From the IMG/VR virus record IMGVR_UViG_3300031994_000063: DNA of 64,000 nt; one strand, 5' to 3'. Below, one piece after another: positions 2,614 to 59,393 of this stretch (position 1 is its first letter; each line of letters begins with the position of its first letter). Made by a program: the position numbers and the translations under genes. Source of the DNA: a virus (taxonomy: Duplodnaviria > Heunggongvirae > Uroviricota > Caudoviricetes). The notes below the pieces were generated by a model. That model did no database searches, was not told the origin of the DNA, and saw only the letters and a program-made list of their open reading frames with translations.

Positions 2614-2689
2614 GGGAACACACAGCAAGTATTTTTGATTTAACAAGTAATTAAATTTGGGTTTTAAAAGTACAGTTAAAAATGTTCCC
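2614..2689 (+). ncRNA. hairpin-bounded repeat element (GGGAACA..CACAGCAAG .. UGUUCCC), copy a
   Basis: 5' gggaaca pairs with 3' tgttccc. Conserved ACAGCAA follows the 5' stem. Member of a family of 12 or more copies. Confidence 0.5.
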
Positions 2690-3934: not shown

Positions 3935-3963
3935 CAAAAAGGAATCTAACAGCAATTGATATA

Positions 3964-4045
3964 GACTTCAGACGGTTAGCTTAGTGGCTTAAAGCCTTGG
4001 ATTTTACCAAGAGAACGTAGGTTCGAATCCTGCACCACCTTAGTT
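3964..4045 (+). tRNA. tRNA-like (D-arm gctt-agtggctta-aagc, T-arm gtagg-ttcgaat-cctgc); anticodon unresolved
   Basis: Canonical D- and T-arms are visible. Acceptor pairing and anticodon loop could not be resolved by eye. Confidence 0.3.
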
Positions 4046-4132
4046 TTAATGATTCCGACATATACTTGGAAGCGTGACCTTGAAAAGCCAAGCCCAATCC
4101 ATCAGTGGCGGTAAATTGTCCAAGTTTTTAAT

Positions 4133-4507: not shown

Positions 4508-5446
4508 ATGACAAATCTTAAATTGCTTACATATAACGTTGATGGACTTCCAGAAACATTGGATTTGAATGACCTCCCTTGGTTGTTTAAACCCTTTGTA
4601 TGGATATATAAGCTAATAAAGGGTACAACTGTCATTACGATTAATGATAACGTAAATAAAAAAGAGAATAATGATAAAATTGCCAAATATTTAAATTCCT
4701 CTGATGCTGACATCATTGCGGTTCAAGAGGATTTTAACTACCATGACAACTTAATCTCTAAGTTGGATAAGAAATATAATTGCGGTACTTATCTCGGTGG
4801 TTTTGACCTTTCCAAGATATTCTCAAACACTGAGTGGTTAACATATTTCCCACTTCCTAGATTTAAATGTGATGGTCTTAACTTGCTAACCAAAAAAGAA
4901 AAAGTTACCACAATTAATGAAACCATTATATCATGGAAAAAGAATTGTGGGTATTTCAGCAACGCCAACGATGCATTAACTCATAAGGGGTATAGGTTTT
5001 ATGAAATTATGAAAGAAAACGTGAAAATTGGTGTGTATGTGATTCATATGGATGCCAATTACTATACCGCTGATACTACAGAGGCTCCAAAAGACATCAA
5101 GGCTAGAGAAGCACAATTGAAGCAATTGGCAAAAGACGTAATAGAAAATTCAAAGGGGAATAACCCATTGACAATAATCATAGGTGATACAAACAGTTAT
5201 AATCAATATTCTTGGGATGTAGATAACCTTAAAAAGAATTTAATTGAACCAATTGAATCAACATATAACTTAACAATACAAGAGGTTGTGCCACAGAATT
5301 TTGCAGACTGTGATAGAATATATACAATAAGTAATGTGGGATTACTGAAAACCTTGAATATCAAGAGTTGTTATTTTGATAAGGAAATGGAGGGGGTTTC
5401 TGACCACTTACCATTGGTTTGCGAAATAGAATTTGAAAAAAAATAG
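4508..5446 (+). CDS. endonuclease/exonuclease/phosphatase (EEP) family protein
   Basis: 312 aa. N-terminal LTYNVDG and IAVQE. C-terminal SDHLPL, the EEP SDHxP catalytic motif. Confidence 0.65.
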   Translation: MTNLKLLTYNVDGLPETLDLNDLPWLFKPFVWIYKLIKGTTVITINDNVNKKENNDKIAKYLNSSDADIIAVQEDFNYHDNLISKLDKKYNCGTYLGGFDLSKIFSNTEWLTYFPLPRFKCDGLNLLTKKEKVTTINETIISWKKNCGYFSNANDALTHKGYRFYEIMKENVKIGVYVIHMDANYYTADTTEAPKDIKAREAQLKQLAKDVIENSKGNNPLTIIIGDTNSYNQYSWDVDNLKKNLIEPIESTYNLTIQEVVPQNFADCDRIYTISNVGLLKTLNIKSCYFDKEMEGVSDHLPLVCEIEFEKK

Positions 5447-5505
5447 TTAAAATATTTGGAGTTTTCAATTATTTTTTATATTTTTGCATCGTTAAAATAA
5501 AATAA

Positions 5506-5647
5506 GGAAACATACAGCAAACATCTATTGATAGCATTTGACTGATAATCAAAGGGTCGTGAGTTCGAGTCTCACCCTCCCCACAAAAGGGAATAAAACT
5601 TGGGGAGGTAGCTCAGTTGGTAGAGAAAAATCAAAAAAATGTTTCCG
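5506..5647 (+). ncRNA. hairpin-bounded element copy b enclosing a circularly permuted tRNA-Ile(GAT)-like unit
   Basis: Closing helix ggaaacat/atgtttcc. Inside: anticodon stem tttga/tcaaa with loop ctgataa, variable gggtc, T-arm gtgag-ttcgagt-ctcac, 3' acceptor cctcccc. After a 17-nt linker comes the 5' acceptor ggggagg plus D-arm tagctcagttggtagag. Confidence 0.5.
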
Positions 5648-5748
5648 AAAATCATAGGGTAGGAATGGAGTTTGGTAACGCAGGAAGTATCCAAGGTTCT
5701 CCACGTTAAATAAAAAAACTGCGAGGTTTATCACTTGCATCGTTTTAT

Positions 5749-5821
5749 CTAGGTGTAGTTCAGTTGGTAGAATGCGTCATTTGGGATGATGTGGTCGGTG
5801 GTTCGAGTCCACTTACCTAGA
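5749..5821 (+). tRNA. tRNA-Pro(TGG)
   Basis: Acceptor ctaggtg/tacctag. Anticodon stem cgtca/tgatg with loop tttggga. T-arm ggtgg-ttcgagt-ccact. Confidence 0.6.
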
Positions 5822-5957
5822 CAAATTGGTGGTTCAGTAAGAGGATTGCGCAAGGCGGTACTAAAAGAAACTAGAGAGTAGTGAATCCTATGGATAGGTG
5901 AATAAATTCTGTAGGAACGCAGCCTATCGGCAACGTGGGTTCGAATCCCACACCATC

Positions 5958-6075
5958 AACTAAGGATACTTACAGCAAATGTAACTTTGTTACAATTTCT
6001 TGGTTCGAATCCAAGCTAAACCTATGGTTTAAGCACCCATTCGTGGGTATTGGTATATTAAAACAAAAGTATCCG
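5958..6075 (+). ncRNA. hairpin-bounded element copy c (ggatact..tacagcaa..agtatcc) with internal T-arm and UUCG hairpin
   Basis: Closing helix ggatact/agtatcc. Internal cttgg-ttcgaat-ccaag and ccca-ttcg-tggg. Confidence 0.45.
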
Positions 6076-6096
6076 TTTTTTTTTTATGATAATATT

Positions 6097-6411
6097 ATGG
6101 GAGAATATAAAAAAATAACAAAAGAAGATATTGACTTTCCTAATTATTGTTTCTTTTTCATCAAAGAAATAAATGAAAGTTTGGAAGAGAACGATATTAC
6201 AAATCCAGGAGACGAATTATCATTGGAGTTGGAAACTTCAGAGCATCCTTATTGTTATGATGCTTTTGAGTTGATTGTTAGAACATTTGAGAGAAAAGGT
6301 TTTAGCACTAGAATTCCAACTTTTCATCTAGTGAAAAAAGATGGGGTGAAAATATATACTTATAATTGGAAACTCATTAAACTCCCAAAGGCAAATGATT
6401 TACCATTTTAG
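6097..6411 (+). CDS. hypothetical protein (start trimmed to avoid tRNA-like sequence)
   Basis: The table ORF 5935-6411 begins inside tRNA-like sequence. First in-frame ATG downstream of that sequence is at 6097. Confidence 0.5.
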   Translation: MGEYKKITKEDIDFPNYCFFFIKEINESLEENDITNPGDELSLELETSEHPYCYDAFELIVRTFERKGFSTRIPTFHLVKKDGVKIYTYNWKLIKLPKANDLPF

Positions 6412-6464
6412 ATAAAAATTTGATTTTAATTCATATTTTAAAATAATAGTAAATAAAAAAAGTT

Positions 6465-7493
6465 ATGAAGAAGATTTTTTTAATGTTGGCACTTGTTTGT
6501 GCCGTTGTGAGTGCAAATGCACAGATTGCAACAGAGAACAGTAATGCTTTCGATAACGTTGGGGTTGGTGTTACTGCTGGTGTATCTACACCGCTTGATT
6601 TCAACTCCGTGTTCCCTTTGAACACAAACGTTGGCTTGAAGATTACTAAGGATATTACACCAGTAATCGGATTCCAGATTGAGGGTCTTGCCGTACTCAA
6701 CGACAATCATTTCAGTGACCTTAAGACCGCTGTGAAGGCAACTAATGTCGGACTTAATGGCGCATTGAATTTGTCAAACCTTTTTTGGGGCTACAAGGGT
6801 ACTCCGCGAGTGTTTGAGGTTAGCACCGTTACGGGTCTTGGATGGCTTCATACATGGAACACATCTAAGAATAATCTGACCGCAAAGACTGGTCTTGACC
6901 TTGCGTTTAACATTGGCAAGAATAAGGCACATAGTTTGGTATTGACACCAGCGGTGTATTGGAACTTGAATAAGATTGACGCAATTCAGTTCAATAAGAA
7001 GGGCGCACAGTTGGCACTTAACTTGACTTATGTGTATCATTTTAAGACTAGCAACGGAACACATCATTTCAAGACATACGATGTTGGTGCAATGACCAAC
7101 GAGATTAATTATCTGCGTGGAAAACTTGATGAGTGTGAGAAACGTGAGCCGAAGGTTGTTGAGAAGATTGTTGAGGTTAAAACTCCAACTACTGATGCAG
7201 CAGTAGTGAAGAATGGAAATAACTCTTGGGTTGTTACATTTGCTACAGCAAGTTCAGTATTGACAAATGAGGCTAAGTTCATTCTTAACCAAGTTGGGGA
7301 TAATGCAGTTGTAGATGTTACTGCAACAGCAAGTCCTGATGGCTCAAGAGAGTTTAACCAGCGTCTCTCTGAGAAGAGAGCGGCAGTTGTTGCCGATTAC
7401 CTATCAAAGCGTGGAGTGAAAGTTAATAGTTTCGCTGGCAAGGGCGTAAGTGCCGAGAGTGGTAGGTCTGCTGTTGTTAAGACAGTTCAGTAA
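6465..7493 (+). CDS. OmpA-family outer-membrane protein (signal peptide, beta-barrel-like N-domain, OmpA-like C-domain)
   Basis: MKKIFLMLALVCAVVSANAQ signal peptide. C-terminal SPDGSREFNQRLSEKRAAVVADYL is OmpA-like. Visibly higher GC than surrounding genes. Confidence 0.6.
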   Translation: MKKIFLMLALVCAVVSANAQIATENSNAFDNVGVGVTAGVSTPLDFNSVFPLNTNVGLKITKDITPVIGFQIEGLAVLNDNHFSDLKTAVKATNVGLNGALNLSNLFWGYKGTPRVFEVSTVTGLGWLHTWNTSKNNLTAKTGLDLAFNIGKNKAHSLVLTPAVYWNLNKIDAIQFNKKGAQLALNLTYVYHFKTSNGTHHFKTYDVGAMTNEINYLRGKLDECEKREPKVVEKIVEVKTPTTDAAVVKNGNNSWVVTFATASSVLTNEAKFILNQVGDNAVVDVTATASPDGSREFNQRLSEKRAAVVADYLSKRGVKVNSFAGKGVSAESGRSAVVKTVQ

Positions 7494-7744
7494 CAACTCA
7501 ACTAAGGAGAATTACAAACGATTAGCGTTGGCGGTGATTCTACGTCCAAAACCGCAAGTTTATCGGTCATCAAATATTTGTCTACATTCTCCTTATTTTC
7601 AATTCTATAGGTGATTAGATAAACGGTTGCTGCGATAAGGTAAACAGCTCAAGGACTAATACCAAACCAGATGTTCTTGCCCTTTTTCATTAAATATATG
7701 TGTTCATAAAATATATTTGGAACATCAGTAAGTTAGTTCACCAT

Positions 7745-7816
7745 GCGAGTGTAGTTCAATGGTTAGAATGGGACCCTTCCAAGGTTCATATGACGGTTCG
7801 ATTCCGTTCACTCGCT
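7745..7816 (+). tRNA. tRNA-Gly(TCC)
   Basis: Perfect acceptor gcgagtg/cactcgc. Anticodon loop cttccaa. T-arm gacgg-ttcgatt-ccgtt. Confidence 0.65.
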
Positions 7817-7822
7817 CAACGT

Positions 7823-7971
7823 GGAAACGTACAGCAATGTATATCGTTTTAAAAAGCATTCCAAGCTAGGGGTCGCAGGTTCGAGTCCTGTCCGCCACTC
7901 AATTTTATAAACTATAATGTGGCGGTAGCTCAGTTGGATTAGAGCACTAAAAATAAACAACAAACGTTTCC
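7823..7971 (+). ncRNA. hairpin-bounded element copy d enclosing a permuted tRNA-like unit (3' half then 5' half)
   Basis: Closing helix ggaaacg/cgtttcc. Inside: T-arm gcagg-ttcgagt-cctgt plus 3' acceptor ccgccac, then a 21-nt linker, then 5' acceptor gtggcgg plus D-arm tagctcagttggattagagc. Confidence 0.5.
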
Positions 7972-7988
7972 TTTTTAAAACAATAAAA

Positions 7989-8183
7989 ATGGATAAAAAG
8001 AATACCATTAAAAAGATTTTTTTAAGGCTGATAATAATAATTTTATTTGTACCATTAACGTTATTATTGCCTTTACAAGTTATCTATTTTGGCCTCAGAT
8101 ATGCAGTGTGTGGTAATTTTGTTTGCGATAACCCTTTACCGTTTTTATTTGCAGAGTGGCTAACGGAGAAATATAACTTGTAA
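7989..8183 (+). CDS. small hydrophobic protein
   Basis: 64 aa, strongly hydrophobic (LIIIILFVPLTLLLPLQVIYFGL). Confidence 0.4.
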   Translation: MDKKNTIKKIFLRLIIIILFVPLTLLLPLQVIYFGLRYAVCGNFVCDNPLPFLFAEWLTEKYNL

Positions 8184-8191
8184 TAATTAAT

Positions 8192-8264
8192 GCAGACGTA
8201 TATCAATTGGTAGATAGCCATCTTGCCAAGATGGAGGTTGGGGAATCGTACTCCCTCGTCTGCT
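8192..8264 (+). tRNA. tRNA-Gly(GCC)
   Basis: Acceptor gcagacg/cgtctgc. Anticodon stem ccatc/gatgg with loop ttgccaa. Non-canonical T-loop. Confidence 0.55.
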
Positions 8265-8288
8265 CTTTTCAGTAAGAAACTTAACAAT

Positions 8289-8492
8289 ATGGAAAAATGT
8301 ATGCGTTGTAAGCATGAGATAATTCTAGAAGGAAACTTTATGCTTAGTGAAATCAACGGAGAAGAATTGAATGAAGATGATGATACGATGGTGACTTATG
8401 CACATTGCCCTTATTGTGGCGCAAGGTATGAGTTGACAGATACACCAGAATCTGAAAAGAGGAATTATCCATATTGGAAGATTGGGGTGTAG
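8289..8492 (+). CDS. small zinc-ribbon protein (CxxC ... CxxC)
   Basis: Trimmed from table ORF 8223-8492, which starts inside tRNA-Gly. MEKCMRCKHE ... HCPYCGARY. Confidence 0.5.
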   Translation: MEKCMRCKHEIILEGNFMLSEINGEELNEDDDTMVTYAHCPYCGARYELTDTPESEKRNYPYWKIGV

Positions 8493-8573
8493 CTTAGACA
8501 GTAAAAGCACATGCCTTATAAGCATGAGATAGTGGGAGCATTACCCATCGCCCCTACAATCTTTTTTTACAAA

Positions 8574-8701
8574 GGAAGCAAACAGCAATATTTGTTTAAA
8601 ACAGCTAATCGTAATTGATTTCGTGGGTTCGAATCCCACACTTTCCTAGATGAAAGTTGGTGGAGTGGGTAAACACGGCAGTCCAAAAACAATTGTTTCC
8701 G
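8574..8701 (+). ncRNA. hairpin-bounded element copy e (ggaagcaa..acagcaa .. ttgtttcc) with internal T-arm gtgggttcgaatcccac
   Basis: Terminal complementarity with one G·U. Internal T-arm plus acceptor-like helix actttc/gaaagt. Confidence 0.45.
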
Positions 8702-9270
8702 ATTATGCGCCTATGGGGGAATTAGTAGACCCGTTAGTCTTAGGAACTAATGTTGAAATATACGTATCAGTGCAAGTCTGATTAGGCGTACAAAAGGTGC
8801 TACGACAAGACTGAGGAAGCCAATTTGATAGTGGCGAGTTCGTATAACGCTGTAGTTAAATGGTATTTGAGTAACAGCCTTTATTAATAGGTATAGGTCA
8901 GTAGGCTTGGAAGCAGCCATCTGTTAAAGAGTGACAGTACTCAGTAAGTGGTGAGGTAATATGTTTTATGGGTTTACACCTCGTGCAAAAACCCTAGGTG
9001 CATCTAGATAATTTGGGAGTTGCAAATCCCTAACTGGCGAGAGACGAGAGGTCGAAGTCGGAGAGTCTGGAATATAAGACCGAATGAGGCTCGTGAAGTC
9101 AAGCTAGAGAACCTTTAAAGCCGCTGCTGGACTCTTGGACGAAACAGTAAACGTAAATCGTGAGGCGTAAAGTTAACTGCGCTGTCTTTGGCGTAACAGC
9201 ACACCTGTAACTATTTATTTTTAGTTGATATTTATTATTATTAAATAATAGGTATCAACTTTTTAATATT

Positions 9271-9966: not shown

Positions 9967-10621
9967 GCATCCGTAGCTCAATTGGACAGAGCAACGGCCT
10001 TCTATTTAAATTGGATGCATAGGCGAGAAATCCCTATGTAGAATCTCCCTAAAACGGTGGAAGTCCTAGTTAAAATTGAAGACCCTTAGTACTTATAAAG
10101 GAAAGTGGAATACGGTTTCAATGGCTTGCAGCAAACGTAAACTGCATCTGAAACAATAAGGAAGGATAATACCGTGCTAAATTGAATGTAGAGGCGAAAA
10201 AATCTCTAATGAGAATGAAAATACGCTTCAGAAAAGTTAATGATTAAGTATGCTACATTCATAAATGTGTAGAGAGTATATAGGAGATATGAGGGAAATA
10301 CATTGAATACCCTCACATTCTATTCAGATGTATCTGATAAGAATGCCTAAGTTGAAATTAAAGATGGTAGTCCAAACAGGTTAGAATGCGAAGATAAAAG
10401 TAGTATTACTATGGAAGTAGAACGCCAATCTGACTTGCAAGAATTTCAATATGGTAATAATGTATTCCAGACCACAATAAAATTATCAGATTCAAGAAGC
10501 AAATAACCGTGAAATTCGGTCGCGTGTGTATAATCAAAGCTCGCGGAAAAGATGATTTTAGCTATGGTAACATAGTGTGACAGGAAGCCGTAGGTTCTGG
10601 GTTCGAGTCCCAGCGGATGTA
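9967..10621 (+). tRNA. split tRNA-Arg(TCT) interrupted by a ~580-nt intervening sequence (group I-like intron candidate)
   Basis: 5' exon 9967-10003: acceptor gcatccg, D-arm tagctcaattggacagagc, anticodon 5' stem acggc, loop start cttct. 3' exon 10585-10621: aa, anticodon 3' stem gccgt, variable aggtt, T-arm ctggg-ttcgagt-cccag, 3' acceptor cggatgt. All stems complementary. Upstream exon ends in U, intron ends in G. aagatggtagtcc at 10361-10373 resembles the group I S element. Confidence 0.5.
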
Positions 10622-10627
10622 CTAATT

Positions 10628-10716: not shown

Positions 10717-10760
10717 CAACGTATCTAGGAAGCCCAGTTGCGCCTAGCTGCATGTTAGTA

Positions 10761-10913
10761 GGAACGTACAGCAGTTTGATTTAAATTTACAAAACATTTT
10801 TAATTATTAATCAGACTAGACGAAGATAAGAGAAGCGTTAAATAATCATTGCGAGGCACTTATCTATGCTCTTCGGAGCGAATGCCGAGTCAAGGCAGTA
10901 AATTGACCGTTCC
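10761..10913 (+). ncRNA. hairpin-bounded element copy f (ggaacgtacagcag .. cgttcc)
   Basis: Terminal helix. Internal UUCG hairpin gctc-ttcg-gagc. T-tract after the 3' stem. Confidence 0.45.
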
Positions 10914-10946
10914 TTTTTCTTTGAACGCAATTGACACAAAATAAAT

Positions 10947-11101
10947 GGAAACGTACAGCAGTTGACGAATCAAATTACATATTCAACTTAAAATCTCCAT
11001 GATTTTAATTAGGCAAAGGGTCGCATACCGCATTATAATAGCGAATAATAGTAACTAATTGTGATGGTCTGAATAAATGACTAGAATAAACCTACGTTTC
11101 C
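10947..11101 (+). ncRNA. hairpin-bounded element copy g (ggaaacgta cagcag .. tacgtttcc)
   Basis: 9-bp terminal complementarity. T-tract follows. Confidence 0.45.
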
Positions 11102-18369: not shown

Positions 18370-18704
18370 AGGAGAAGCCGCATATTAGGTATACAGATGC
18401 ATTTTTATACGGTGAGGAATCTAGAACAGAACGCATTAGTCTGTAATAATGTGCCAAAGGTTCGATGTCAGGGAAGGTTACTTTGGAAATATATTTAGTG
18501 GGTACACACAGCAAAATTATTTTTTCAAACAAACTGTTAATTTGTGTAAAACGTAGGTTCGATTCCTACCCCATCCGCATTTTTAACTATAACATTTGGA
18601 TGGGTTGAAATGTTGGTTTTATGTACCCTTTTTCTAAAAAAAAGTTAATGAATTTGGCCGTTTCAATTTTTTTTCGTATATTTGCGCCATAAAAGTATAA
18701 AAAA

Positions 18705-19061: not shown

Positions 19062-19128
19062 TTATTGTCCGTTGCCATTGAAAAGAAATTTTTATGGGTT
19101 GAAAAAAAGATATAGAAACAACACTAAA

Positions 19129-19776
19129 ATGATTATTGCGTTTGATACATATTATTACGATGGGTATTCGTATACCGTTGGTGGGGTGTTTGAAAGTTGG
19201 ACAGATACCAAAGTAAAATATTTCGTCACAAGTAAAAGAGAAACAATTGATGCAAAGTACAAACCAGGAGAATTATATAAACGTGAACTACCATGTATTA
19301 TGCAGTGTTTAAAAATGATAGACCTAGATGATGTTGACACAATTATCGTTGATGGATTTGTTTGGTTGTCTGAAAACGGAAAAGATAGAACTCTTGGAAT
19401 TGGTATGCGTTTGGCGAACGCTTTAATGGTAGAATACAACAGACCAGATATATCAATTGTTGGGATTGCTAAAAATCCATACCATTGTGAGATACCAGAT
19501 TGTGTTGAAATTTTACGTGGTAACTCAAACACACCTTTATGGATAACATGCTCTGAGTATCATTTCACTAATAATTATGCATCGTTAATAAAACAAATGG
19601 TTGGTAATTATAGAATACCAGATATTATCAAATCCGTTGATTCTAAAACAAGAGACATTAAATCAGTAGGCGATAAAAAACAGCCGAAACACAAGACATA
19701 TCATATTATGACTCACGATGAATGGGTTGAATTGGGTAAACCTCAATATTGTGGTGTGTATGTAGAAGATAAATAA
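19129..19776 (+). CDS. nfi: endonuclease V (Nfi) family protein
   Basis: AFDTYYYDGYSYTVGGVF, KYKPGELYKRELPC, IIVDGFVWLSENGKDRTLGIGMRLANAL and ISIVGIAKNPY align with the EndoV blocks (DV.Y, PYiPGlLafRE, DGqG..HPRr.G.A.H.G, PtiGvAK). Confidence 0.65.
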   Translation: MIIAFDTYYYDGYSYTVGGVFESWTDTKVKYFVTSKRETIDAKYKPGELYKRELPCIMQCLKMIDLDDVDTIIVDGFVWLSENGKDRTLGIGMRLANALMVEYNRPDISIVGIAKNPYHCEIPDCVEILRGNSNTPLWITCSEYHFTNNYASLIKQMVGNYRIPDIIKSVDSKTRDIKSVGDKKQPKHKTYHIMTHDEWVELGKPQYCGVYVEDK

Positions 19777-21938: not shown

Positions 21939-22177
21939 CCTTTTGCACGTTAAAGGCTTATCAGCAGGACAGCAACAGTGAATATCTATAACGTGCTCGT
22001 AAGCATACTTTAGATTAAGAATGCCGTATATTGGTCTTAACTACGTTAATGCAAGACAAGTCTGCGATGGCTCGAAGGGGTACAGTAGGCGAAACATGCT
22101 TGAGGGGTGATATATTGGAAGACACACGCCATCTTATAGTGGGGTACAGTAGGTTCAAATCCTATCACAAGCACTAA

Positions 22178-22250
22178 GGAAACATACAGCAAGTATTAAG
22201 AATTTTTAAGAGCAAAACTTTTAATTTTGATTTCTAAAAACATGTTTCCG
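22178..22250 (+). ncRNA. hairpin-bounded element copy h
   Basis: ggaaacat acagcaag ... atgtttcc. Confidence 0.45.
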
Positions 22251-22277
22251 TATTTTTAACATAAAACAATATTTATA

Positions 22278-22838
22278 ATGGCAGTAGGTGTTATCATTGC
22301 AAGAATACAGCCCATACATAAAGGGCATCTTGAGTTAATACGGCAAGCACTAAACGAGAATGAAAATGTTCTTCTGCTCGTTGGTTCTGCCGATAAACTC
22401 AATAAAAGGAATCCAATACCAATTGCTATGAGATTGGAACTCGCTAATAAGGCGATAGAAGAGGCATTTAAAGAGGACTCTAAAAGGGTTAGAATACAAC
22501 CATTAGCAGACCTTACAGATGAATCGGACAACTCTCATGATTGGGGCTTTTATCTCTATAGTCACATTGTTGGGTTTACAAAATCTCCAGAGTTTACAAT
22601 ATATTACTCTGATGGTTTTGAGATAATTATGCAGTGGTTTCCACCTTTCATTACGAGAGATTTCGTATCATTCAAACTTAATGCAAGGGGAACTATCCAC
22701 AATAGTCTGTCTGCTACGAAAGTAAGGGAAATGATTCTTAAAGAGGATATTGAAAGCCTTAGAGAAGCAGTTCCAACTTGCGTTATAGAAAATGCAATGA
22801 TTTTGAAACATTTTATTGAAGCGTTTAAAGACGTATAA
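22278..22838 (+). CDS. nicotinamide/nicotinate mononucleotide adenylyltransferase (NadM-type)
   Basis: GVIIARIQPIHKGHLELIRQA matches the GRFQPxHxGH nucleotidyltransferase motif of archaeal-type NMNAT. Confidence 0.7.
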   Translation: MAVGVIIARIQPIHKGHLELIRQALNENENVLLLVGSADKLNKRNPIPIAMRLELANKAIEEAFKEDSKRVRIQPLADLTDESDNSHDWGFYLYSHIVGFTKSPEFTIYYSDGFEIIMQWFPPFITRDFVSFKLNARGTIHNSLSATKVREMILKEDIESLREAVPTCVIENAMILKHFIEAFKDV

Positions 22839-22979
22839 TAAAAATATAGCTAGTTCCGCAGTACGATAAATAAATTGGCAAGCGTATAACGTTGGTATCC
22901 TATAACGGACTCATATAACATTAGGAGGTCTAGTGAAACTTGTGTGGTGAAAAATCGGAAATCCACAAACTAGCTTTAT

Positions 22980-23053
22980 CGAGGGGTATATCAGTTGGTT
23001 AGATTGTCATCCTGATAAGATGAAGGTCGCAAGTTCAAGTCTTGCCCTCTCGA
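22980..23053 (+). tRNA. tRNA-Ile(GAT) second copy
   Basis: Acceptor cgagggg/cctctcg. Anticodon arm identical to the 15964 copy. T-arm gcaag-ttcaagt-cttgc. Confidence 0.55.
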
Positions 23054-23500
23054 CAATTTTTTATCATGGGCTTGTAATGGATTTGACAGCAATGCATTTG
23101 GTAAGAAACAAGCAGTGGGCATACACTTGAAATAGCAAAAAAAATATAAACGGCGAGAATGTTAATTCTCCTGCTTACGAGTACGCTATTGCAGCGTAAG
23201 TAAGCCGAGAGGCTAGGCTCTTAGGAACAGAACATCCTAGCATTCTTTCTTTAGTCATCTTTTAGTTTTCCTTGTTTTCACAAAACAAGGTGGTCTCAAA
23301 GGCGGTGTCTTCGGACACTTTGGGGAAGCTTGTATAATTTCTTATGGAATGGTTGTTTGGACCGCAGTTCGACTCTGCGCAAGTCCACTTAACTACTTGA
23401 AAATCAAACGCTTAACAAAATTTAAGAAAAAACTTCTTGAAAATTTTGGAACTTTCAAAAATTTTATATATCTTTGCATTGTTAAACAAAAAGACATACA

Positions 23501-23782
23501 ATGAGTAAAATTTTAGATAAAGATTTCAGAAACGAACTATATAAAAGCCTTCAAGAGGCTGGTTATAGCAAAGGAGAGGCTACTAATATTGTTAGTGTAA
23601 AATATTGTGAGGCTCTTAAAATCAATTTAGTTGATAAACTTAGAGAACAAGCAGATAATATTGAGCATGGCAAAGAGGAACTATTGCTTAGTGTTGATGA
23701 ATATAGTAGTATCCTTTCAGAATTGGCTAAACTCAAAGAGTTTTTCGACAAAAAAGAAGAAAAAAATGCAAATAAATCTTAA
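23501..23782 (+). CDS. hypothetical protein
   Basis: 93 aa. Promoter ttttggaactttcaaaaattttatatatctttgcattg upstream. Confidence 0.5.
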   Translation: MSKILDKDFRNELYKSLQEAGYSKGEATNIVSVKYCEALKINLVDKLREQADNIEHGKEELLLSVDEYSSILSELAKLKEFFDKKEEKNANKS

Positions 23783-23841
23783 AAAATTTGGATATTAAAA
23801 ATATTTTTCATATCTTTGCATTGTTGATTTGAAAATAGCAA

Positions 23842-23906
23842 GGAAACTTACAGCAAATTATTCTTAACATCAAATTGTCACTTTGAAACGTTTAGAAAAG
23901 GTTTCC
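23842..23906 (+). ncRNA. hairpin-bounded element copy i
   Basis: ggaaac ttacagcaa ... ggtttcc. Confidence 0.45.
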
Positions 23907-23924
23907 GATTTAAATACATAATAT

Positions 23925-24009
23925 CGTGGGATAGTGTAATGGTAACATGCAAGGCTCATAACCTTGAGACGGAACTCGCATCGTGTTGGTTCGAATCCAA
24001 CTCCCGCAA
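23925..24009 (+). tRNA. tRNA-Met(CAT)-like with C1·A72 and 18-nt variable region
   Basis: Anticodon stem caagg/ccttg with loop ctcataa. T-arm gttgg-ttcgaat-ccaac. 3' end tcccgcaa resembles bacterial initiator tRNA. Confidence 0.45.
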
Positions 24010-24012
24010 CTA

Positions 24013-24170
24013 ATTTTGTGGTGGACAAATCAAAAAACCACCTTTTGGAAGATACCAGAGGAGAACGTCAGTAATGACGATGTAGACAAATGGGCATTAA
24101 GTTCGTGCTTAATGTGTCACTTCGGTGGCTTCGCTAGTGCAAATCTAGCTCTACCAACAAATGTAGTATA
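24013..24170 (+). ncRNA. structured small RNA, copy 1 of a ~160-nt duplicated element
   Basis: Hairpins ggtgg..ccacc, acgtca-GUAA-tgacgt (GNRA), cattaag-ttcgtg-cttaatg, tcac-UUCG-gtgg, gctag-tgcaaat-ctagc. Second copy at 24316 carries compensatory changes in three helices. Confidence 0.6.
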
Positions 24171-24315
24171 AACGCTCAGGTGCAATCGGCAGTAAAGGTT
24201 GGCGAGGAAAGTGAGGTTGCGACAAACACACAACTGTATGAAACATAGCAGATGTCCTTTACCATTAAATTAGTTCTGCAAAATGAATTAGCCTTTACAA
24301 TACTATAATTATATC

Positions 24316-24474
24316 TTGTGGTGGACAAGTTAAAAAACCACCTTTTGGTTAGTACCAGAGGAGAACGTCAGCAATGACGATGTAGACAAATGGGCATCAA
24401 GTTCGTGCTTGATGTGCTTCTTCGGAAGCTTCAGCAGTGCAAATCTGCTCTAACCAACTAGATATGCCTTTTCG
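24316..24474 (+). ncRNA. structured small RNA, copy 2 of the duplicated element
   Basis: ~88% identical to copy 1. Helices catcaag/cttgatg, cttc-UUCG-gaag and agcag/ctgct preserve pairing through double substitutions. GCAA replaces GUAA in the tetraloop. Confidence 0.6.
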
Positions 24475-25588
24475 TGCCGTAGACAACGGTAAAAATGGGT
24501 TTTATGTGGTTAAACAATCCATATCTATGGTAACTTCGGGAGCCATAATTCTAGAGAACGTGTACTAGAAAAAAATGAATTGGGGAAGGTATTCTATAAT
24601 GGTGTAAAGAATTGGAGCTTGGGATAGAAGCCCACCTCGTAAGAGGAAGCAGTTTACTGATTATAATAATCCAAAATGGAAATAATACCCAAAAGAATAA
24701 GCCGATTCTAAGAGGAAATATCTTGTGAAAGATATAAGGCTGATGGCTAGCTTTCGTAGCCAGATAGAAGGATAATCCAGTGATGGGATAAATGAGACGG
24801 ACATTGACAACTAAGCCGACTCAGATGCTCTGGTTTCCCAGAGCATTTCACTGAAAAGCATATGGTACGGTATGTCGTTCGGTAGGTAAACTGTGGGACA
24901 TACTACCTAGGTTAACCGCTTAGGTTGAGTAGTGATACAATAGATTACCATATGGAACTCGATACAATAGTCACCAGTTGGCGTGTTGGGTTCAAGTAAA
25001 CATTCGTCTTAACGTGAAAGGCGTGGTCTATAAGCGTTAAGAACCGTAAGGCTGAGAATGGGTATTAGTGCTACAGACCTGTGGTGGGTTTGGCATAGGA
25101 AGGCGATTTAGTGGGCTGTGTTCAAAAGACACGGATGCTAAGGGTCGCACCTCGTCTTCCATTAGTTGTGAGTTGTAGCTCAAGTGGTAGAGCAGCCGAC
25201 TTGAAATCAGCGTGTTACAGGTTCGATTCCTGTCGATTCTAATAATAGAATTATAGAAGCAAAAGTGTGCGACACTGAGCAGATAAAATGCACTTATCTC
25301 TCCTGCAATATGGAGGCATCGGTGACTCGCAAGGAATCCGATGAACGAGTAAAAGTAGTCATCTGAGTTAACAGGAGGCATCCTGTGAATCCGCAAGAGC
25401 TTGGTGGTGAAATGAATGTTATGATTCTGTACCGAGAGGTTTAAATCAGTAAGAGTTTGGTAGTTTTCGCAAAACTATCGTGCATGATGTCTACGTCTGC
25501 CGTAAGGTAGCGTGTGAAGAGCAAGTTCCAACGCTTGTATAAAGGCATCAACAATAAGGTCAAATTCTCAGCCTTTTTGTATTTATAT

Positions 25589-25713
25589 AGGGATTTAGCT
25601 TAATTGGCAAGAGTAATTTGTTGCGACTTAAGGAATAAAGCACTCTCGACTTCGGAACAGAGTGTGCCTTTAACTGTTAATAAACGATGGCGGTTCGAGT
25701 CCGTCAGTCCCTG
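25589..25713 (+). ncRNA. tRNA-like with ~50-nt insertion (contains repeat tctcgacttcggaacaga)
   Basis: Perfect acceptor agggatt/agtccct. D-arm tagcttaattggcaagag. T-arm ggcgg-ttcgagt-ccgtc. Total 125 nt. Confidence 0.35.
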
Positions 25714-25856
25714 CAATAAGTAATTCTCATGGGGTATAAACACGTTGGGTGGTGACCTGCTGGTCGGTTTCATGCATAAGAAGACCATACGAGAGGCGGT
25801 AAATATAAGACCTCTTGGAGTTCGAATCTCCAATACTCCACTTAAACAATTAACAT

Positions 25857-26183
25857 ATGAGAGAATTTACTTATAGCGGTTTCGAAAATCAAGAAACTTG
25901 CAATCACCTCAGAGGAGGTGAGACGTGTAAAGTAACTGGTATTGGAAATTCTATGACCCCTATTCTTAAATCAAGACAAGCGGTTATATGTGAACCAGTA
26001 AAAGATGATACAAAACTAGAAAAGAAAGATATTGTTCTTTGCAAAGTTAGAGGTCATCATTATCTGCACCTAATCCATGCAATTAAAAATGATAGTGAAT
26101 ATCTTATTGGTAGCAATAGAGGGCATATGAACGGATGGGTAGGTAGAAACCAAATCTACGGAAAAGTAGTAGAGATTCTTTAA
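25857..26183 (+). CDS. S24-family (LexA/UmuD-like) peptidase domain protein
   Basis: VTGIGNSMTPIL (GDSM-like Ser motif), KKDIVLCKV, HLIHAIKNDSEYLIGSN and IYGKVVEIL follow the S24 C-terminal domain pattern. Confidence 0.55.
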   Translation: MREFTYSGFENQETCNHLRGGETCKVTGIGNSMTPILKSRQAVICEPVKDDTKLEKKDIVLCKVRGHHYLHLIHAIKNDSEYLIGSNRGHMNGWVGRNQIYGKVVEIL

Positions 26184-26230
26184 GGTCAAATGGTTGTAAT
26201 GAAGGTTCGATTCCTTCTGACTAACAAACG

Positions 26231-26302
26231 GGGGTATAGGCTAACAGGCTAAACTGATAGCTTTGCAAGCTATATTTGAGAGTTCGAGTCTCTCTACCTC
26301 CA
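26231..26302 (+). tRNA. tRNA-Ala(TGC)
   Basis: Acceptor gggggta/tacctcc. Anticodon stem atagc/gctat with loop tttgcaa. T-arm gagag-ttcgagt-ctctc. Confidence 0.6.
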
Positions 26303-26385
26303 CTAAGGTATTGGATAATGCTACGATGAGTAGGTAAAGAGTTTCGTAGTGTGGCTTTACCGTTTCCAATTCCTTAACCAATAGT

Positions 26386-26458
26386 GGGAACTTACAGCAA
26401 TGACTATATGGAATTTGCTTGAAACGAATACAACCGAAAAAAGTTCCCTTCAGCACAA
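26386..26458 (+). ncRNA. hairpin-bounded element copy j
   Basis: gggaactt acagcaatg ... aagttccc. Confidence 0.45.
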
Positions 26459-26684
26459 AACTTACGATAGAGGCGTAGGGGTACAAGCGTGGGCTAACGT
26501 TAACTGAATTAACAGCTACTGAGGGTGTGAGTAATTACATCTAGGCGTAATGGTGGACACTTAGTAATAGCCTTATTGGTGTGCCGAAGTGCTCAATGTC
26601 AAGTCCTTATGGGATAAAAGAAATCTTGGCGGTTGAGAATAACGAGATTCCAGATGAAAGTACCTCCGTAAGTTTTATTAATCA

Positions 26685-26768
26685 TGGGGTGATGTAGTGG
26701 TAACATGACGGTCTCATAAGCCGTATACGCTTGAAACGCTTGCGTTGGTTCGAATCCAACCCCCTTGA
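26685..26768 (+). tRNA. tRNA(CAT)-like with long variable region
   Basis: Anticodon stem acggt/gccgt with loop ctcataa. T-arm gttgg-ttcgaat-ccaac. Acceptor pairing imperfect. Confidence 0.4.
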
Positions 26769-26773
26769 CATAA

Positions 26774-26839
26774 GGAAGCATACAGCAATGTTTTAATAGG
26801 ACTTGATTTGTAATCAAATATTCTAGAAAAATGTTTCCG
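26774..26839 (+). ncRNA. hairpin-bounded element copy k
   Basis: ggaagcat acagcaatg ... atgtttccg followed by a T-tract. Confidence 0.45.
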
Positions 26840-27023
26840 TTTTTATTAACTAATTAAAATAAAAATAATTATTATGAAGAAAAACAGTTTTTGGTAGGTT
26901 TTCAGCCAATTTTGGTAGCTGAATCGTGTTCGTGGTACTCCTAAAATTAATTCGTTAGGGGAAAAAAGTGAAGTAAAGTTTTTAACATTTAAAGAATATA
27001 ACGAATTAATAATAGGAAAAAAT

Positions 27024-28054: not shown

Positions 28055-28145
28055 GGGCATATGGCAGAGTGGTTTAATGTGCTGAACTCTAAATTCAGTA
28101 TGGGCTTGAGAAAGTTCATCGTGGGTTCGAATCCTACTATGCTCG
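28055..28145 (+). tRNA. class II tRNA with anticodon CTA (putative amber suppressor)
   Basis: Acceptor gggcata/tatgctc. D-region tggcagagtggtttaatgt. Anticodon stem ctgaa/ttcag with loop ctctaaa. Long variable arm. T-arm gtggg-ttcgaat-cctac. Confidence 0.5.
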
Positions 28146-28244
28146 CTACAGCTAGTACAAAGTTAAAAATTGTTAAAGTTGAACTGATTATTTGGTTAGT
28201 TCACCTTTTTTTCGTACCTTTGCATCAATAAAACAATAAACAGC

Positions 28245-29220: not shown

Positions 29221-29721
29221 ATGAAAGATAAATTAAGAATATTGGGTGTAGAATTACTCAATTCAAATTTGACGATTGGCACAGTAGAACATTGCACTAG
29301 TGGTTTACTTGGCGCATCCATATCAAGTATGTGTGGACTAGATACAGTTTATTGCGGAACAATAGTTGTTGTTGACCAACCCCATATGGAGAAACTATTA
29401 GATGTATCGCCTAACGCAATAAAAAACAATGGGCTTGTAAGTTCCCAAGTGGCTTGCCAAATGGCTCTAAATGGTCTTTATAAGTTAAATACAGATATTT
29501 GTGTTGCGGTGGTTGGTAATGTATTGCCTACGGAAGACTTTAATGAGGATACTTATAATGTCGTTTGGATTTGTATTGCGACAATGACAGATAAAAAAGT
29601 AGATTTTAAATATAGCAAAATACAAGTAGATGGATTACGAGGCCAAAACATTGAAACTGTAATTGAGTCTGCTTTAGAAACTCTTATAGTTGAAATTAAA
29701 CACATTACTGTTGAAAAATAA
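29221..29721 (+). CDS. pncC: CinA-C/PncC-like NMN deamidase
   Basis: LTIGTVEHCTSGLLGASIS matches the CinA C-terminal domain motif (lT.A.AESCTGG). Confidence 0.6.
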   Translation: MKDKLRILGVELLNSNLTIGTVEHCTSGLLGASISSMCGLDTVYCGTIVVVDQPHMEKLLDVSPNAIKNNGLVSSQVACQMALNGLYKLNTDICVAVVGNVLPTEDFNEDTYNVVWICIATMTDKKVDFKYSKIQVDGLRGQNIETVIESALETLIVEIKHITVEK

Positions 29722-30089
29722 TGGACTGTGTATTTTGTGACATCCAAAAGGATAGGATAATCTATCAAGATTCTTTATGGATTGCTATTTTAGATGGTTA
29801 TCCAGTTTCGGAAGGGCATACCCTATTAATTCCCAAAAGGCATTGCGAAACCTATTTTGATTTAAACCAAGTGGAATTGGGCACTCTTATTGGTGCAATT
29901 GACCGCGTTAAAGAAATACTTGATTCTAAATACAAGCCAAATGGGTATAACATAGGGGTGAATTGTGGCGAGGCTGCTGGGCAAACCGTTATGCATTGCC
30001 ATATACACGTTATACCTAGATATAACGGTGATTGTGAAGACCCAAGAGGGGGTGTGAGGGGTGTCATTCAATCTAAACAAAAATATTAA
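29721..30089 (+). CDS. HIT-family hydrolase
   Basis: HCHIHVIPR histidine-triad motif. Overlapping start (ATG A) with the pncC-like gene. Confidence 0.75.
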   Translation: MDCVFCDIQKDRIIYQDSLWIAILDGYPVSEGHTLLIPKRHCETYFDLNQVELGTLIGAIDRVKEILDSKYKPNGYNIGVNCGEAAGQTVMHCHIHVIPRYNGDCEDPRGGVRGVIQSKQKY

Positions 30090-39463: not shown

Positions 39464-39468
39464 CAAAG

Positions 39469-39560
39469 AAGCATACAGCAAGTATCTCTGTGGAGGAATG
39501 GTATACTCAATAGTCTGCAAAACTATTTTTTGTGGGTTCGAATCCCACCTTTAATGCTTC
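39469..39560 (+). ncRNA. hairpin-bounded element copy l with internal T-arm gtgggttcgaatcccac
   Basis: gaagcat acagcaag ... atgcttc. A terminator-like hairpin follows at 39574-39604. Confidence 0.45.
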
Positions 39561-40312
39561 TTGTTTTATATCAAAGCACTCAGAAATGGGTGCTTTTTTT
39601 CATTTTTAGATATTCATTAAGAACTGATTTATATCAATTAAAAGTGTAAAAATAACAATTTTACTTTGGAAATTTTGGGTATTAATTATATTTTTCATAT
39701 CTTTGCAATGTTGTAAATGATTAGTGTGTTCGCACACATATGATTGATTTACATCAAAATTAAGGGCATTTTTTGAAAATGGGTAAATGAAATGATTGTT
39801 TTTAAAAAATTATATAATATATATTATAGGAAGTGAGTGAATAATTGTTGATATAGAAAACTTGAAATTTAATCTTGGTTATGTAATCACTAGAAAGCAA
39901 AGAACAGTGAGTAACTTGAAAAAATAATAGGAAGAAGTGCAAAAGAAAGTTTCTCATCTGTAGGATTTATAAAGCTAGGGTATTATAAATGGTCTAAGTT
40001 GAATTTGGCTAATGAGTATTACAAAAACCTATATTGTTATTTTTCATATCTATATCAGATTGTTAAATTTAAATTGAAAGGGAAATAATTATGAAGAAGA
40101 TAGCAAATTTTCTACATGCTTGGCTTAACAACTATGCTAGCATGACTCCCACTGGAATGATTCCATTGGTGTAATGACAGCTTGGGAAGTTTTGCCCTAG
40201 CCAAACGAAAGCAACAGTAAGTGCAGCGGAATTGTTAGGGGTTTAGACCCTTTAACAGTTCCTAAAAAAAAAAGAAGTAAGTAAATAAGTAAGTGTAAAA
40301 AGGGAAATAATT

Positions 40313-41427: not shown

Positions 41428-41900
41428 TGGAATACCCAGAATTATATTTAGATTGGATAGAATATCTGCATGAAAAAAAAATATATGGAGCATGGAAAAA
41501 CGACTTATCGTTATGTGCGTATGCATGTAAAAACGCTCCTAATCCAAGGCGCTATATTTTTGGCTTATGCGGAAAATCTGACTACATAGACACAATTATC
41601 AATTCATTTGGCGTAGCAAACGATAAAGGTCTTAGATATATAATAGATAGTATTGTTCGTGATTTAAAATGGACTATTGCTTATTACAGTTCATCAAAAA
41701 TAGATTGGTTTCAAATATATCATAATTTTTATACTTTAAGGCATCCACCAATTACATTATCTAGAAAGTTATCCAAAAAACTTTATAGGGCTAACAACAA
41801 AATAAGCAGTTGCTATCACTCAAGAGAAAAAGAAGAACAACCTTGGTATGATAAAAGCTACGAAAAAAATAAATATAATAAAAAAGCATGGAGAAAATGA
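41427..41900 (+). CDS. hypothetical protein
   Basis: 157 aa. ATGA overlap with the upstream gene. Confidence 0.5.
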   Translation: MEYPELYLDWIEYLHEKKIYGAWKNDLSLCAYACKNAPNPRRYIFGLCGKSDYIDTIINSFGVANDKGLRYIIDSIVRDLKWTIAYYSSSKIDWFQIYHNFYTLRHPPITLSRKLSKKLYRANNKISSCYHSREKEEQPWYDKSYEKNKYNKKAWRK

Positions 41901-59023: not shown

Positions 59024-59386
59024 ATGGGTACACTATGTAAAAACTGTCCTTTCAAAGGCATTAAAACTGAAACGGATTCTTGTACTACTCTATTTGCAAA
59101 AAAATATCATAACTCTTGTGTTACGTATGATATTACTAGACATAAGGAGAAACAAGAAAGGGAAGAATTCATAAAGGAACTTGAGGAGTTTACTAATGAA
59201 AAGAAAACAGCGAAAACACTTGATGAAACTACTAAAGTTAAAAAGGTATCAAAACCAAGAAAATCAAGAAAGCCTAAAAAAGAAACAAACGATAAAGGTA
59301 TAGAAACAAAAGAAACTATTGCAGAAATTGTTGGCAGTATTGCTAATGCTGCTGTGGTTTGCGAAAATAATAATAAAACAGAATAA
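59024..59386 (+). CDS. hypothetical basic protein with N-terminal Cys cluster
   Basis: MGTLCKNCPFKG..SCTT..HNSC. Lys-rich C-terminal half. Confidence 0.45.
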   Translation: MGTLCKNCPFKGIKTETDSCTTLFAKKYHNSCVTYDITRHKEKQEREEFIKELEEFTNEKKTAKTLDETTKVKKVSKPRKSRKPKKETNDKGIETKETIAEIVGSIANAAVVCENNNKTE

Positions 59387-59393
59387 ATTATAT

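Follow-up and report, generated by a model that had tools for sequence, protein, structure and literature searches.

A permuted tRNA-Ile-like unit in a phage tRNA array and its candidate family of scaffolded mimic RNAs

RNAs shaped like a transfer RNA (tRNA) need not decode: the vtRNAs of murine herpesvirus 68 (MHV68), mascRNA and the t-elements of plant mitochondria are processed by RNase P and RNase Z, sometimes receive CCA, and are non-decoding. Nor need the halves of a tRNA gene stand in their usual order. In the permuted tRNA genes of algae and archaea, leader and trailer form a bulge-helix-bulge (BHB) that the tRNA splicing endonuclease cuts, after which a circular intermediate is made by a ligase. 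Such genes were reportedly described by Soma et al. in 2007 and Chan et al. in 2011 from Cyanidioschyzon merolae, other algae and Thermofilum pendens. In bacteria and some phages, the YrlA RNAs, Y-RNA-like RNAs bound by Ro60/Rsr, bear on a terminal stem a tRNA-like module ordered as T arm, loop-closed acceptor and D arm, so that this permuted layout is already known, phages included (PMC4201824). The YrlA of Mycobacterium smegmatis has a 7-bp acceptor stem; in vivo, RNase P cleaves this RNA and CCA is added to it, and the halves stay bound to Rsr (PMC4201824). Here we analyse a unit, E3, at positions 5506–5646 on the plus strand of a 64,000-nucleotide (nt) stretch (the window) of the Caudoviricetes record IMGVR_UViG_3300031994_000063. 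E3 carries a tRNA-Ile(GAU)-like domain in permuted order, and is best explained, judging from its sequence and that of its relatives, as the gene for a non-coding RNA of about 141 nt belonging to a multi-copy family of a Bacteroidota-infecting jumbo phage. The ends of this RNA pair as a 7-bp acceptor-like stem followed by a conserved U-ACAGCAA/A-rich internal loop, and from this handle, or scaffold, a variable cargo projects.

The sole Rfam similarity of the scaffold units is to YrlA (RF02553). The full-length model matched 5531–5648 with 33.3 bits, 7851–7973 with 34.6 bits (E about 1e-4 to 1e-6) and 8598–8702 with 18.2 bits, all below the gathering score of 69, and adjacent T and D arms of tRNAs are known to yield false YrlA matches (PMC4201824). 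The likeness lies in a terminal stem made from the 5′ and 3′ ends of the RNA, in the T arm, closed acceptor hairpin and D arm, and in the nucleotides of tRNA tertiary contacts. However, the Ro60 motif GNCGAAN0-1G is absent from a profile of 153 scaffold units, and E3 has instead the 5′ strand GGAAACAU-ACAGCAA opposite an A-rich strand. YrlA typically has a Ro60/TROVE gene within about 4 kb on the same strand, whereas none was found among the screened open reading frames (ORFs) of the window. E3 also keeps a full anticodon stem-loop, its handle emerging on the side of the D arm and not standing in for the anticodon arm, and the scaffold units occur in more than 13 copies per genome, within a tRNA array and with many types of cargo. 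E3 thus resembles YrlA in architecture and is not a member of it.

With the algal and archaeal genes, E3 shares a 3′ half placed before the 5′ half on the same strand, a short intervening sequence, a canonical cloverleaf and a leader that pairs with the trailer. It differs in that the phage units, which belong to a bacterial virus, lack a BHB, have no fixed junction and no conserved identity, and come with no splicing endonuclease among about 50 window ORFs. The two-piece transfer-messenger RNA (tmRNA; permuted ssrA, RF04321 and relatives) likewise has a permuted tRNA-like gene, whose acceptor linker is removed without religation, but E3 has neither a tag reading frame nor pseudoknots, and its matches to these models are local and sub-threshold (T arm and acceptor, 16–22 bits). 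The viral, mascRNA and mitochondrial tRNA-like handles, in turn, are not permuted, share no common non-tRNA scaffold motif and do not come from a phage tRNA array. In keeping with the initial annotation, which held permuted tRNA genes to be undescribed in phages, we found no paper describing them, or the ACAGCAA scaffold, in phages.

Layout of the permuted unit

All layout elements of E3 were read directly from the sequence (Table 1). The full string runs from GGAAACAT through ACAGCAA, a 14-nt leader and CA to the anticodon arm, T arm, 3′ acceptor strand, 18-nt loop, 5′ acceptor strand and D arm (5537–5625), and ends with a 13-nt A-rich trailer and ATGTTTCC. The break in the cargo falls between tRNA positions 24 and 25. 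When 5602–5625 was joined in silico to 5535–5583, ARAGORN called a tRNA-Ile(gat) with a flawless cloverleaf. The unpermuted locus was not called as a full tRNA by ARAGORN or by the Rfam tRNA model: RF00005 gave no contiguous whole-model match over E3, only a 5′-truncated one to model positions 14–71 (31.1 bits at 5480–5583). A purpose-written scan of the window for permuted tRNAs reached its top score of 13/13 only at E3 and at 7823–7971, with linkers of 18–19 nt. The second of these, a related unit that the initial annotation had singled out for checking, gave a tRNA-Gly(tcc) in ARAGORN once re-joined. Since only these two units reached the top score, and since no fewer than 16 distinct orthologues show the same order of parts together with compensatory changes, the permuted tRNA-Ile-like arrangement is real and not a product of chance.

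Most of the layout first proposed for this locus is borne out. The anticodon arm, variable loop, T arm, 3′ acceptor and complementary 5′ acceptor are all present on the plus strand, the enclosing helix ggaaacat/atgtttcc is there as described (GGAAACAT at 5506–5513, ATGTTTCC at 5639–5646), and the gene order of a circularly permuted tRNA holds both in the sequence and in the complete cloverleaf that ARAGORN finds after re-joining. The linker, given as 17 nt, has 18 (5584–5601), and the unit, placed at 5550–5630, is wider (5506–5646). The D arm does follow the 5′ acceptor, although its fourth stem partner C25, together with A26, lies upstream at 5535–5536. A Bacteroidota-type promoter motif does stand just upstream, where a consensus promoter had been proposed; it was recognised by eye rather than with a calibrated model. 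This motif (TTTG...TAnnTTTG) belongs to a family of direct repeats, D1, with four copies (2116, 5450, 9528 and 11561), the E3 member spanning 5450–5508.

Table 1 Coordinates of E3, of its upstream repeat and of the other scaffold copies in the window
Feature	Position	Strand	Remark
Promoter-like repeat, Bacteroidota-type TTTG ... TAttTTTG	5450–5495	+	read from sequence; putative function
Enclosing helix, GGAAACAT with ATGTTTCC	5506–5513 with 5639–5646	+	
P1 5′ strand GGAAACA	5506–5512	+	7-bp terminal, acceptor-like stem; partner 5640–5646; covaries
U + ACAGCAA, conserved single-stranded scaffold motif	5513–5520	+	enrichment, strand bias
Leader spacer ACATCTATTGATAG	5521–5534	+	degenerate copy of D-arm 3′ part
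C25 and A26 of the tRNA-like domain	5535–5536	+	junction immediately 5′ of C25
Anticodon-like arm TTTGA-CTGATAA-TCAAA (GAU)	5537–5553	+	compensatory changes in 4 of 5 stem pairs
Variable loop GGGTC	5554–5558	+	
T arm GTGAG-TTCGAGT-CTCAC	5559–5575	+	2 stem pairs changed on both sides; 100% paired
3′ acceptor strand CCTCCCC, then discriminator-like A	5576–5582, 5583	+	
Loop of 18 nt closing the inner acceptor stem	5584–5601	+	last base U = −1 relative to G1; 8–22 nt in relatives
5′ acceptor strand GGGGAGG	5602–5608	+	perfect complement of CCTCCCC
U8 A9 (TA) and D arm GCTC-AGTTGGTA-GAG	5609–5625	+	
A-rich trailer AAAAATCAAAAAAA	5626–5639	+	3′ strand of scaffold internal loop
P1 3′ strand TGTTTCC, then discriminator-like G	5640–5646	+	profile of 153 units
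E1, minimal copy, anticodon-like hairpin cargo (TGG)	2614–2689	+	
Scaffold copy, normal-order tRNA-like cargo	3941–4057		failed stricter closure test
E5, permuted tRNA-Gly(TCC)-like cargo, same scaffold	7823–7971	+	junction 29/30, in anticodon stem
E6, T arm, closed acceptor hairpin and class-II-like D arm	8574–8700	+	YrlA match 18 bits
E9, scaffold GGGTACAC ACAGCAA ... ATGTACCC, permuted Asn(GTT)-like cargo	18500–18628	+	junction about 25/26
Other scaffold copies	5964–6074, 10760–10914, 10947–11101, 22178–22249, 23842–23906, 26386–26448, 26774–26838, 39467–39561		

One scaffold with many kinds of cargo

The scaffold of E3 is present at least 13 times in the window. Its plan is a covarying 7-bp terminal stem, GGRAACN/NGTTYCC (P1), one usually unpaired U, an invariant ACAGCA(A/G), the cargo and an A-rich strand. 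The window has 26 occurrences of ACAGCAA where 9.4 would be expected, and ACAGCA[AG] is strongly biased in strand (26 sites on the plus strand vs 5 on the minus strand). We further examined whether the 8-mer preceding ACAGCA[AG] matched a complementary 8-mer within 260 nt: 13 of the 26 sites were closed by such a stem, compared with a mean of 3.2 at random positions (maximum 9 in 200 trials).

From the window and about 65 related jumbo-phage loci we collected 160 distinct scaffold units, 153 of which entered the profile. Across these 153, all seven pairs of P1 stay complementary. Six of the seven vary, mostly with changes on both sides (GC/AT at pair 1, AT/GC at pair 3, AT/TA at pair 4 and AT/TA/GC/CG at pair 7), and pair 6 is an invariant C-G. 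Position 8, directly after P1, is U in 69% of units and mostly unpaired. Near the 3′ end, A makes up 66–79% at five of the six positions from −13 to −8, and 39% at −11. As the collection was seeded by the ACAGCA motif and a stem requirement, the conservation of those two features is partly by construction; the enrichment, the strand bias and the covariation of stem positions are independent of that seeding. Orthologue counts given here are of distinct sequences and not of independent lineages. A database scan with a 15-mer returned mostly chance matches, and we therefore replaced it with a gapped pattern of 23 bases.

Several other descriptions of the handle were tried and dropped. Leader and trailer can pair as an inner helix, P2 (TTGAT/ATCAA in E3, GTTTA/TAAAC in E5), but this helix showed no covariation and was broken in some orthologues, and ACAGC had no consistent partner, either as the 5′ strand of a D stem or in pairing with the A-rich strand. 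The leader ACATCTATTGATAG can pair with the D-arm region in the minimum free energy (MFE) fold of E3, a pairing that orthologues do not keep. Hand threading into a theta-type fold, akin to the hepatitis delta virus (HDV) ribozyme, failed as well: the partner of the 5′ stem lies at the extreme 3′ end, with nothing beyond it to form a P2. Searches for self-cleaving ribozymes (HDV-like/theta, hammerhead, twister, hatchet and pistol) over 5450–8750 and 22100–27000 found none at E ≤5–10, and the minimal scaffold copies matched no Rfam family.

Two further sequences recall the scaffold. In another phage group (loci L189 and L197), a 7-bp stem TAGATAG/CTATCTA followed by TT-CAGCAA stands 6 nt upstream of a tRNA and about 170 nt upstream of a tRNA with GGGGAGG, which suggests that the scaffold family is wider than the ACAGCAA search pattern. 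The 5′ region of the tmRNA of the window, GACAGCAAUGCAUUU, resembles the scaffold motif ACAGCAAUGUAU, where coincidence and common origin are both possible. This tmRNA is a standard one-piece molecule (23068–23390) with the tag GENVNSPAYEYAIAA and a G3:U70 acceptor.

On this single scaffold we observed several kinds of cargo, among them bare anticodon-like hairpins, tRNA-like domains in normal order, permuted tRNA-like domains and a mimic of the L1 stalk of 23S ribosomal RNA (rRNA). Minimal units of 62–76 nt carry a hairpin alone. In five of the six minimal copies of the window, this hairpin has the format of an anticodon arm (a 5-bp stem and a 7-nt loop with U at position 2 and a purine at position 6), a format that shuffled sequences reach in about 0–10% of trials per unit. 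The normal-order domain at 3941–4057 and its orthologues have a conserved 6-nt "anticodon" loop. For permuted cargo, we searched for a T arm followed by a 7-nt strand and, within 60 nt, by the complement of that strand; 77 of the 160 units matched, a few of them seemingly spuriously, and several independent permuted classes emerged. In the relative L124, the counterpart of E6 has the scaffold in place of the anticodon loop. The rRNA mimic lies on the minus strand of L135 (345–564), in a 220-nt unit with the scaffold GGAAACGT ACAGCAG ... ACGTTTCC, and its cargo matches positions 2131–2210 of the bacterial 23S rRNA model, in the L1-stalk region (53 bits, E 6e-15). Finally, 10760–10914 and 10947–11101 are adjacent 155-nt units with the ACAGCAG variant and a conserved cargo (for example, TAGGCAAAGGG...ACC and GAGAAGCGTTAAAT...GCGAGGCAC) that matched no Rfam family.

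Conservation of the fold and drift of the decoding identity

The fold of the cargo was assessed in two classes of orthologues. For the Ile-type class, 16 distinct aligned sequences from many metagenomes were scored over five helices, and 96.7% of alignment cells form standard pairs, compared with at most 58% in controls in which the helices were slid. Nine pairs changed on both sides (four in the anticodon stem, two in the T stem and three in the inner acceptor stem), and the covariation score of 0.209 was reached by none of 500 shuffles (0.078). In the Gly class (26 sequences), the inner acceptor strand reads GTGGCGG, CTGGCGG, GGCGTGG, AGCGTGG, ATGGCGG, AGCGGGG or GGCGGGG, the 3′ strand being complementary in every case, and the split anticodon stem changes from CTA/TAG to CTT/AAG. 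These compensatory changes in both classes indicate that the cargo folds as a tRNA-like cloverleaf across both gene pieces, and that this fold is under selection rather than decaying.

These results bear directly on the suspicion that E3 is a functionless, decaying scar of a tandem tRNA-Ile duplication, a deletion scar without conservation in relatives, as the initial annotation had itself considered. The leader, which keeps a degenerate copy of the 3′ half of the D arm, does fit a tRNA gene that was once duplicated in tandem, as may the 2–5 nt of microhomology at the junctions. Nevertheless, at least 16 distinct sequences, drawn from many metagenomes, preserve the arrangement; their scaffold is intact, three of the stems show compensatory changes, and several independent permuted classes exist. 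The covariation largely refutes a scar, which we regard as extremely improbable. A non-permuted counterpart of the E3 tRNA was sought in viral contigs, and no exact junction match was found; matches sharing the E3 5′ half were unrelated tRNAs, some with insertions. Among tRNA genes starting with GGGGAGGTAGCTCAGTTGGTAGAGCA (L188 8727, L189, L190 and L195), we noted that the anticodon region carries insertions of about 45 nt, a length below that of group I introns. A similarity to the Prevotella Lak megaphages traced to an ordinary tRNA-Ile gene, with no scaffold there.

The anticodons tell a different story from the stems. Nine of the 16 Ile-type sequences have GAT, four have a 6-nt loop produced by a one-base deletion, and AAT, AGT and CGG occur once each. 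Counted over the 15 sequences of the GGGGAGG class, 6 depart from GAT or have the 6-nt loop. The Gly class has TCC in 18 sequences, TTC and TAG in two each, and GCT, TAC, TCG and TTG in one each; its discriminator is A (14), T (7) or G (5), and its 1:72 pair is G-C, C-G or A-T. The Asn-type class, represented by E9, has GTT in the window and TTT and GTG loops in relatives. A 6-nt anticodon loop does not support normal decoding, and bacterial seryl-tRNA synthetase (SerRS), which needs a long variable arm, could not charge a GCT anticodon set on a class-I body. The window, moreover, already holds two canonical tRNA-Ile(GAT) genes and one canonical tRNA-Gly(TCC) gene, all unrelated in sequence to the cargo. 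Taken together, the alignments indicate that the decoding identity of the cargo is not under selection.

The junction drifts too. Across classes, it falls in the D loop, at 24/25, 25/26 or 29/30, or the handle replaces the anticodon loop altogether. Even within the Ile class we distinguished two subtypes. In subtype I, which includes E3, a D hairpin forms within the downstream piece alone and the handle leaves between 24 and 25; in subtype II, a D stem GCTA/TAGC spans both gene pieces, each of which keeps a GG, and the handle leaves from the D loop. The length of the leader after ACAGCAA and that of the trailer (0 to about 16 nt) vary independently. Inspection of all 16 and 26 orthologues revealed that the flanks of the junction are similar, through the microhomology mentioned above, and not complementary; with such flanks and such variable spacers, there is no BHB, in the flanks or in the MFE fold, and no fixed distance from a conserved motif.

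Array setting, enzymes and candidate roles

The window covers the part of a large phage genome that holds its tRNA array, with 31 ARAGORN calls, further Rfam tRNA hits and the tmRNA. Relatives identified through the neighbouring ORF at 4508–5446 are IMG/VR contigs of 88–295 kb, and one relative of about 295 kb is IMGVR_UViG_3300021256_000001. Pattern searches recovered the same units on contigs as long as 412 kb, as well as on one that had been binned with Alistipes. About one-third of the units start 0–8 nt (mode 4–5) after an ARAGORN tRNA, and about one-quarter have the next tRNA 4–8 nt (mode 6–7) downstream, which equals the tight spacing between adjacent tRNAs of the array. Units start with G; one G or T follows, often succeeded by a T-run. 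As the units fill tRNA slots with tRNA-like spacing, they may be excised as tRNAs are and so freed from the array transcript, RNase P and the 3′-end machinery handling their terminal stem like that of an acceptor.

This setting also invites another account, in which the terminal stem and ACAGCAA merely punctuate array transcripts as a cassette for processing, stability or termination, and the cargo is tolerated filler. The 4–7-nt spacing in tRNA slots, the T-runs after many units, the position of some units directly after promoters and the great heterogeneity of the cargo all agree with it. Filler, however, would not be expected to accumulate compensatory substitutions in its stems, to keep the nucleotides of tertiary interactions invariant or to mimic translation RNAs over and over (tRNAs, anticodon arms with U33 and R37, the L1 stalk), and we hold this account to be unlikely.

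The enzymes of the window are relevant to how E3 could mature. A CCA-adding enzyme with an HD domain is encoded at 57076–58482, an RNA ligase (PF09414; it weakly matches the DraRnl-type model) at 61409–62317, and an EEP-family nuclease/phosphatase at 4508–5446, directly upstream of E3; PDB sequence searches with the ligase and the EEP protein gave no matches. Ligases of the PF09414/DraRnl type are common phage tRNA-repair enzymes. Among about 50 ORFs of the 64-kb window, we found no TROVE/Ro60, RtcB or tRNA-splicing endonuclease (tRNA_int_endo), and no plus-strand ORF of at least 250 amino acids matched TROVE. More broadly, RNA-repair and NAD-salvage genes are scattered non-contiguously over 19–62 kb (57076–58482, 61409–62317, 29721–30089, 41888–42481, 22278–22838, 29221–29721, 59319–59969 and 19072–19776), the set comprising the CCA-adding enzyme and RNA ligase, HIT, NUDIX, NMNAT-like, CinA, isochorismatase/nicotinamidase-like and endonuclease V genes.

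With an RNA ligase and a CCA-adding enzyme in the window, a cut-and-seal pathway is conceivable, especially where the break lies inside a helix, as in E5 and in subtype I of the Ile class. E3 could then be a true circularly permuted tRNA gene: leader and trailer would be removed, 24/25 (or 29/30) sealed by the phage ligase, and the linker opened by RNase P, 3′ trimming and CCA addition, yielding a decoding tRNA-Ile. Removal of the flaps from a helix would leave a duplex nick, the type of substrate that nick-sealing ligases use, and the EEP gene stands just upstream. Yet the break of subtype II lies in the D loop and not in a duplex, no splicing endonuclease or RtcB was found among about 50 window ORFs, and with no BHB and with both the junction and its distance from the motif varying, there is no fixed ruler for such processing. 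The 6-nt loops, the anticodon switches on an unchanged body (GCT on a class-I body among them), the canonical tRNA-Ile(GAT) and tRNA-Gly(TCC) genes already in the window and the presence on the same scaffold of cargo unable to become a tRNA, such as bare hairpins, a tRNA-like domain with a 6-nt loop and the L1-stalk mimic, also speak against decoding. We therefore do not retain the initial annotation of a tRNA-Ile gene matured via a circular intermediate, and judge a true permuted tRNA gene to be doubtful. That the scaffolded permuted units in general are tRNA precursors, whose flaps a phage nuclease trims before a nick-sealing ligase joins 24/25 or 29/30 and RNase P, together with the CCA enzyme, opens the linker, is a possibility that we consider slightly more doubtful still.

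We lean instead, with limited confidence, towards E3 being one cargo of a multi-copy, Ro60-independent family of scaffolded mimic RNAs that is not rearranged into a decoding tRNA. The other cargoes argue for this: as the same scaffold also bears bare anticodon arms and an rRNA mimic, a tRNA look-alike is likelier than a gene for a working tRNA. The gene would read as a circularly permuted tRNA because the tRNA-shaped domain has its own acceptor stem, closed by the 18-nt loop. Several observations weigh against this preference and favour a tRNA that decodes. The re-joined cloverleaf of E3 is perfect, with G18G19, the T-loop and the G15:C48 pair; its inner acceptor has the 7-bp stem, U-1 and A73 expected of a functional tRNA; and the majority of orthologues keep GAT (or TCC) along with U33 and a purine at 37. 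The coexistence of the CCA enzyme with the ligase points in the same direction. As for the mimic family itself, no Ro60/TROVE gene was found among about 50 window ORFs, and no partner protein of the scaffold was identified in a screen that covered 64 kb of a genome of about 300 kb.

If E3 does belong to a mimic family, its RNA may mimic tRNA in the manner of YrlA-type Y RNAs. The handle could provide common processing, stability or the binding of one shared protein, and the tRNA-shaped cargo could serve as a decoy or tether for proteins that normally bind tRNA, such as nucleases directed at the anticodon, modification enzymes or synthetases. With its 7 bp, U at −1 and A73, the inner acceptor may also be opened by RNase P and the phage CCA-adding enzyme into a two-piece RNA, comparable to M. 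smegmatis YrlA. One could go further and propose that such a two-piece molecule, its halves held together by the scaffold stem, is aminoacylated and used in translation; the acceptor features and the phage CCA enzyme would permit it. An extra helix and about 30 unpaired nt would then sit at the junction of the D and anticodon stems, a region established to contact the ribosome, and the anticodon and discriminator drift, so that a functional two-piece tRNA seems highly unlikely.

The array contains further unusual elements. Aberrant tRNA-like genes with a good acceptor stem and T arm, and with insertions of 25–60 nt or odd cores, lie at 2874–2996, 5827–5961, 10503–10623, 25589–25714, 25731–25842, 61085–61173 and 22098–22175; standard ARAGORN missed them and relaxed ARAGORN labels them "intron-containing". 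A GOLLD-like RNA at 25098–25574 matches RF02032 over its full length with 82 bits (gathering score 150; E 7e-21), contains a tRNA (25169–25241) and is directly followed by the insertion-bearing gene at 25589–25714. The tRNA at 28055–28146 has a CTA anticodon (an amber suppressor, labelled Pyl by ARAGORN), and ORF lengths, ORF statistics and stop usage gave no signal of stop-codon recoding or TAG reassignment in the window.

On the mimic account, comparative checks should precede any annotation of permuted or "orphan" tRNA halves of phages as tRNA genes or pseudogenes. Were the precursor account of the scaffolded units true, a bacterial virus would for the first time be seen to have permuted tRNA genes and a protein-catalysed rearrangement of tRNAs at the RNA level. 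If our preferred account of a mimic family is true, the "tRNA arrays" of large Bacteroidota phages of the gut and rumen also hold more than 12 look-alike RNAs, which display the body of a tRNA, an anticodon arm alone or a copy of the L1 stalk on one handle made of a 7-bp stem and U-ACAGCAA/A-rich loop. They would constitute a new class of phage non-coding RNA, extending the Y-RNA/YrlA principle, in which a stem that binds protein bears a tRNA mimic, to a Ro60-independent, multi-cargo system, and would offer a testable route by which phages interfere with, or are protected from, the tRNA-directed enzymes of their hosts.

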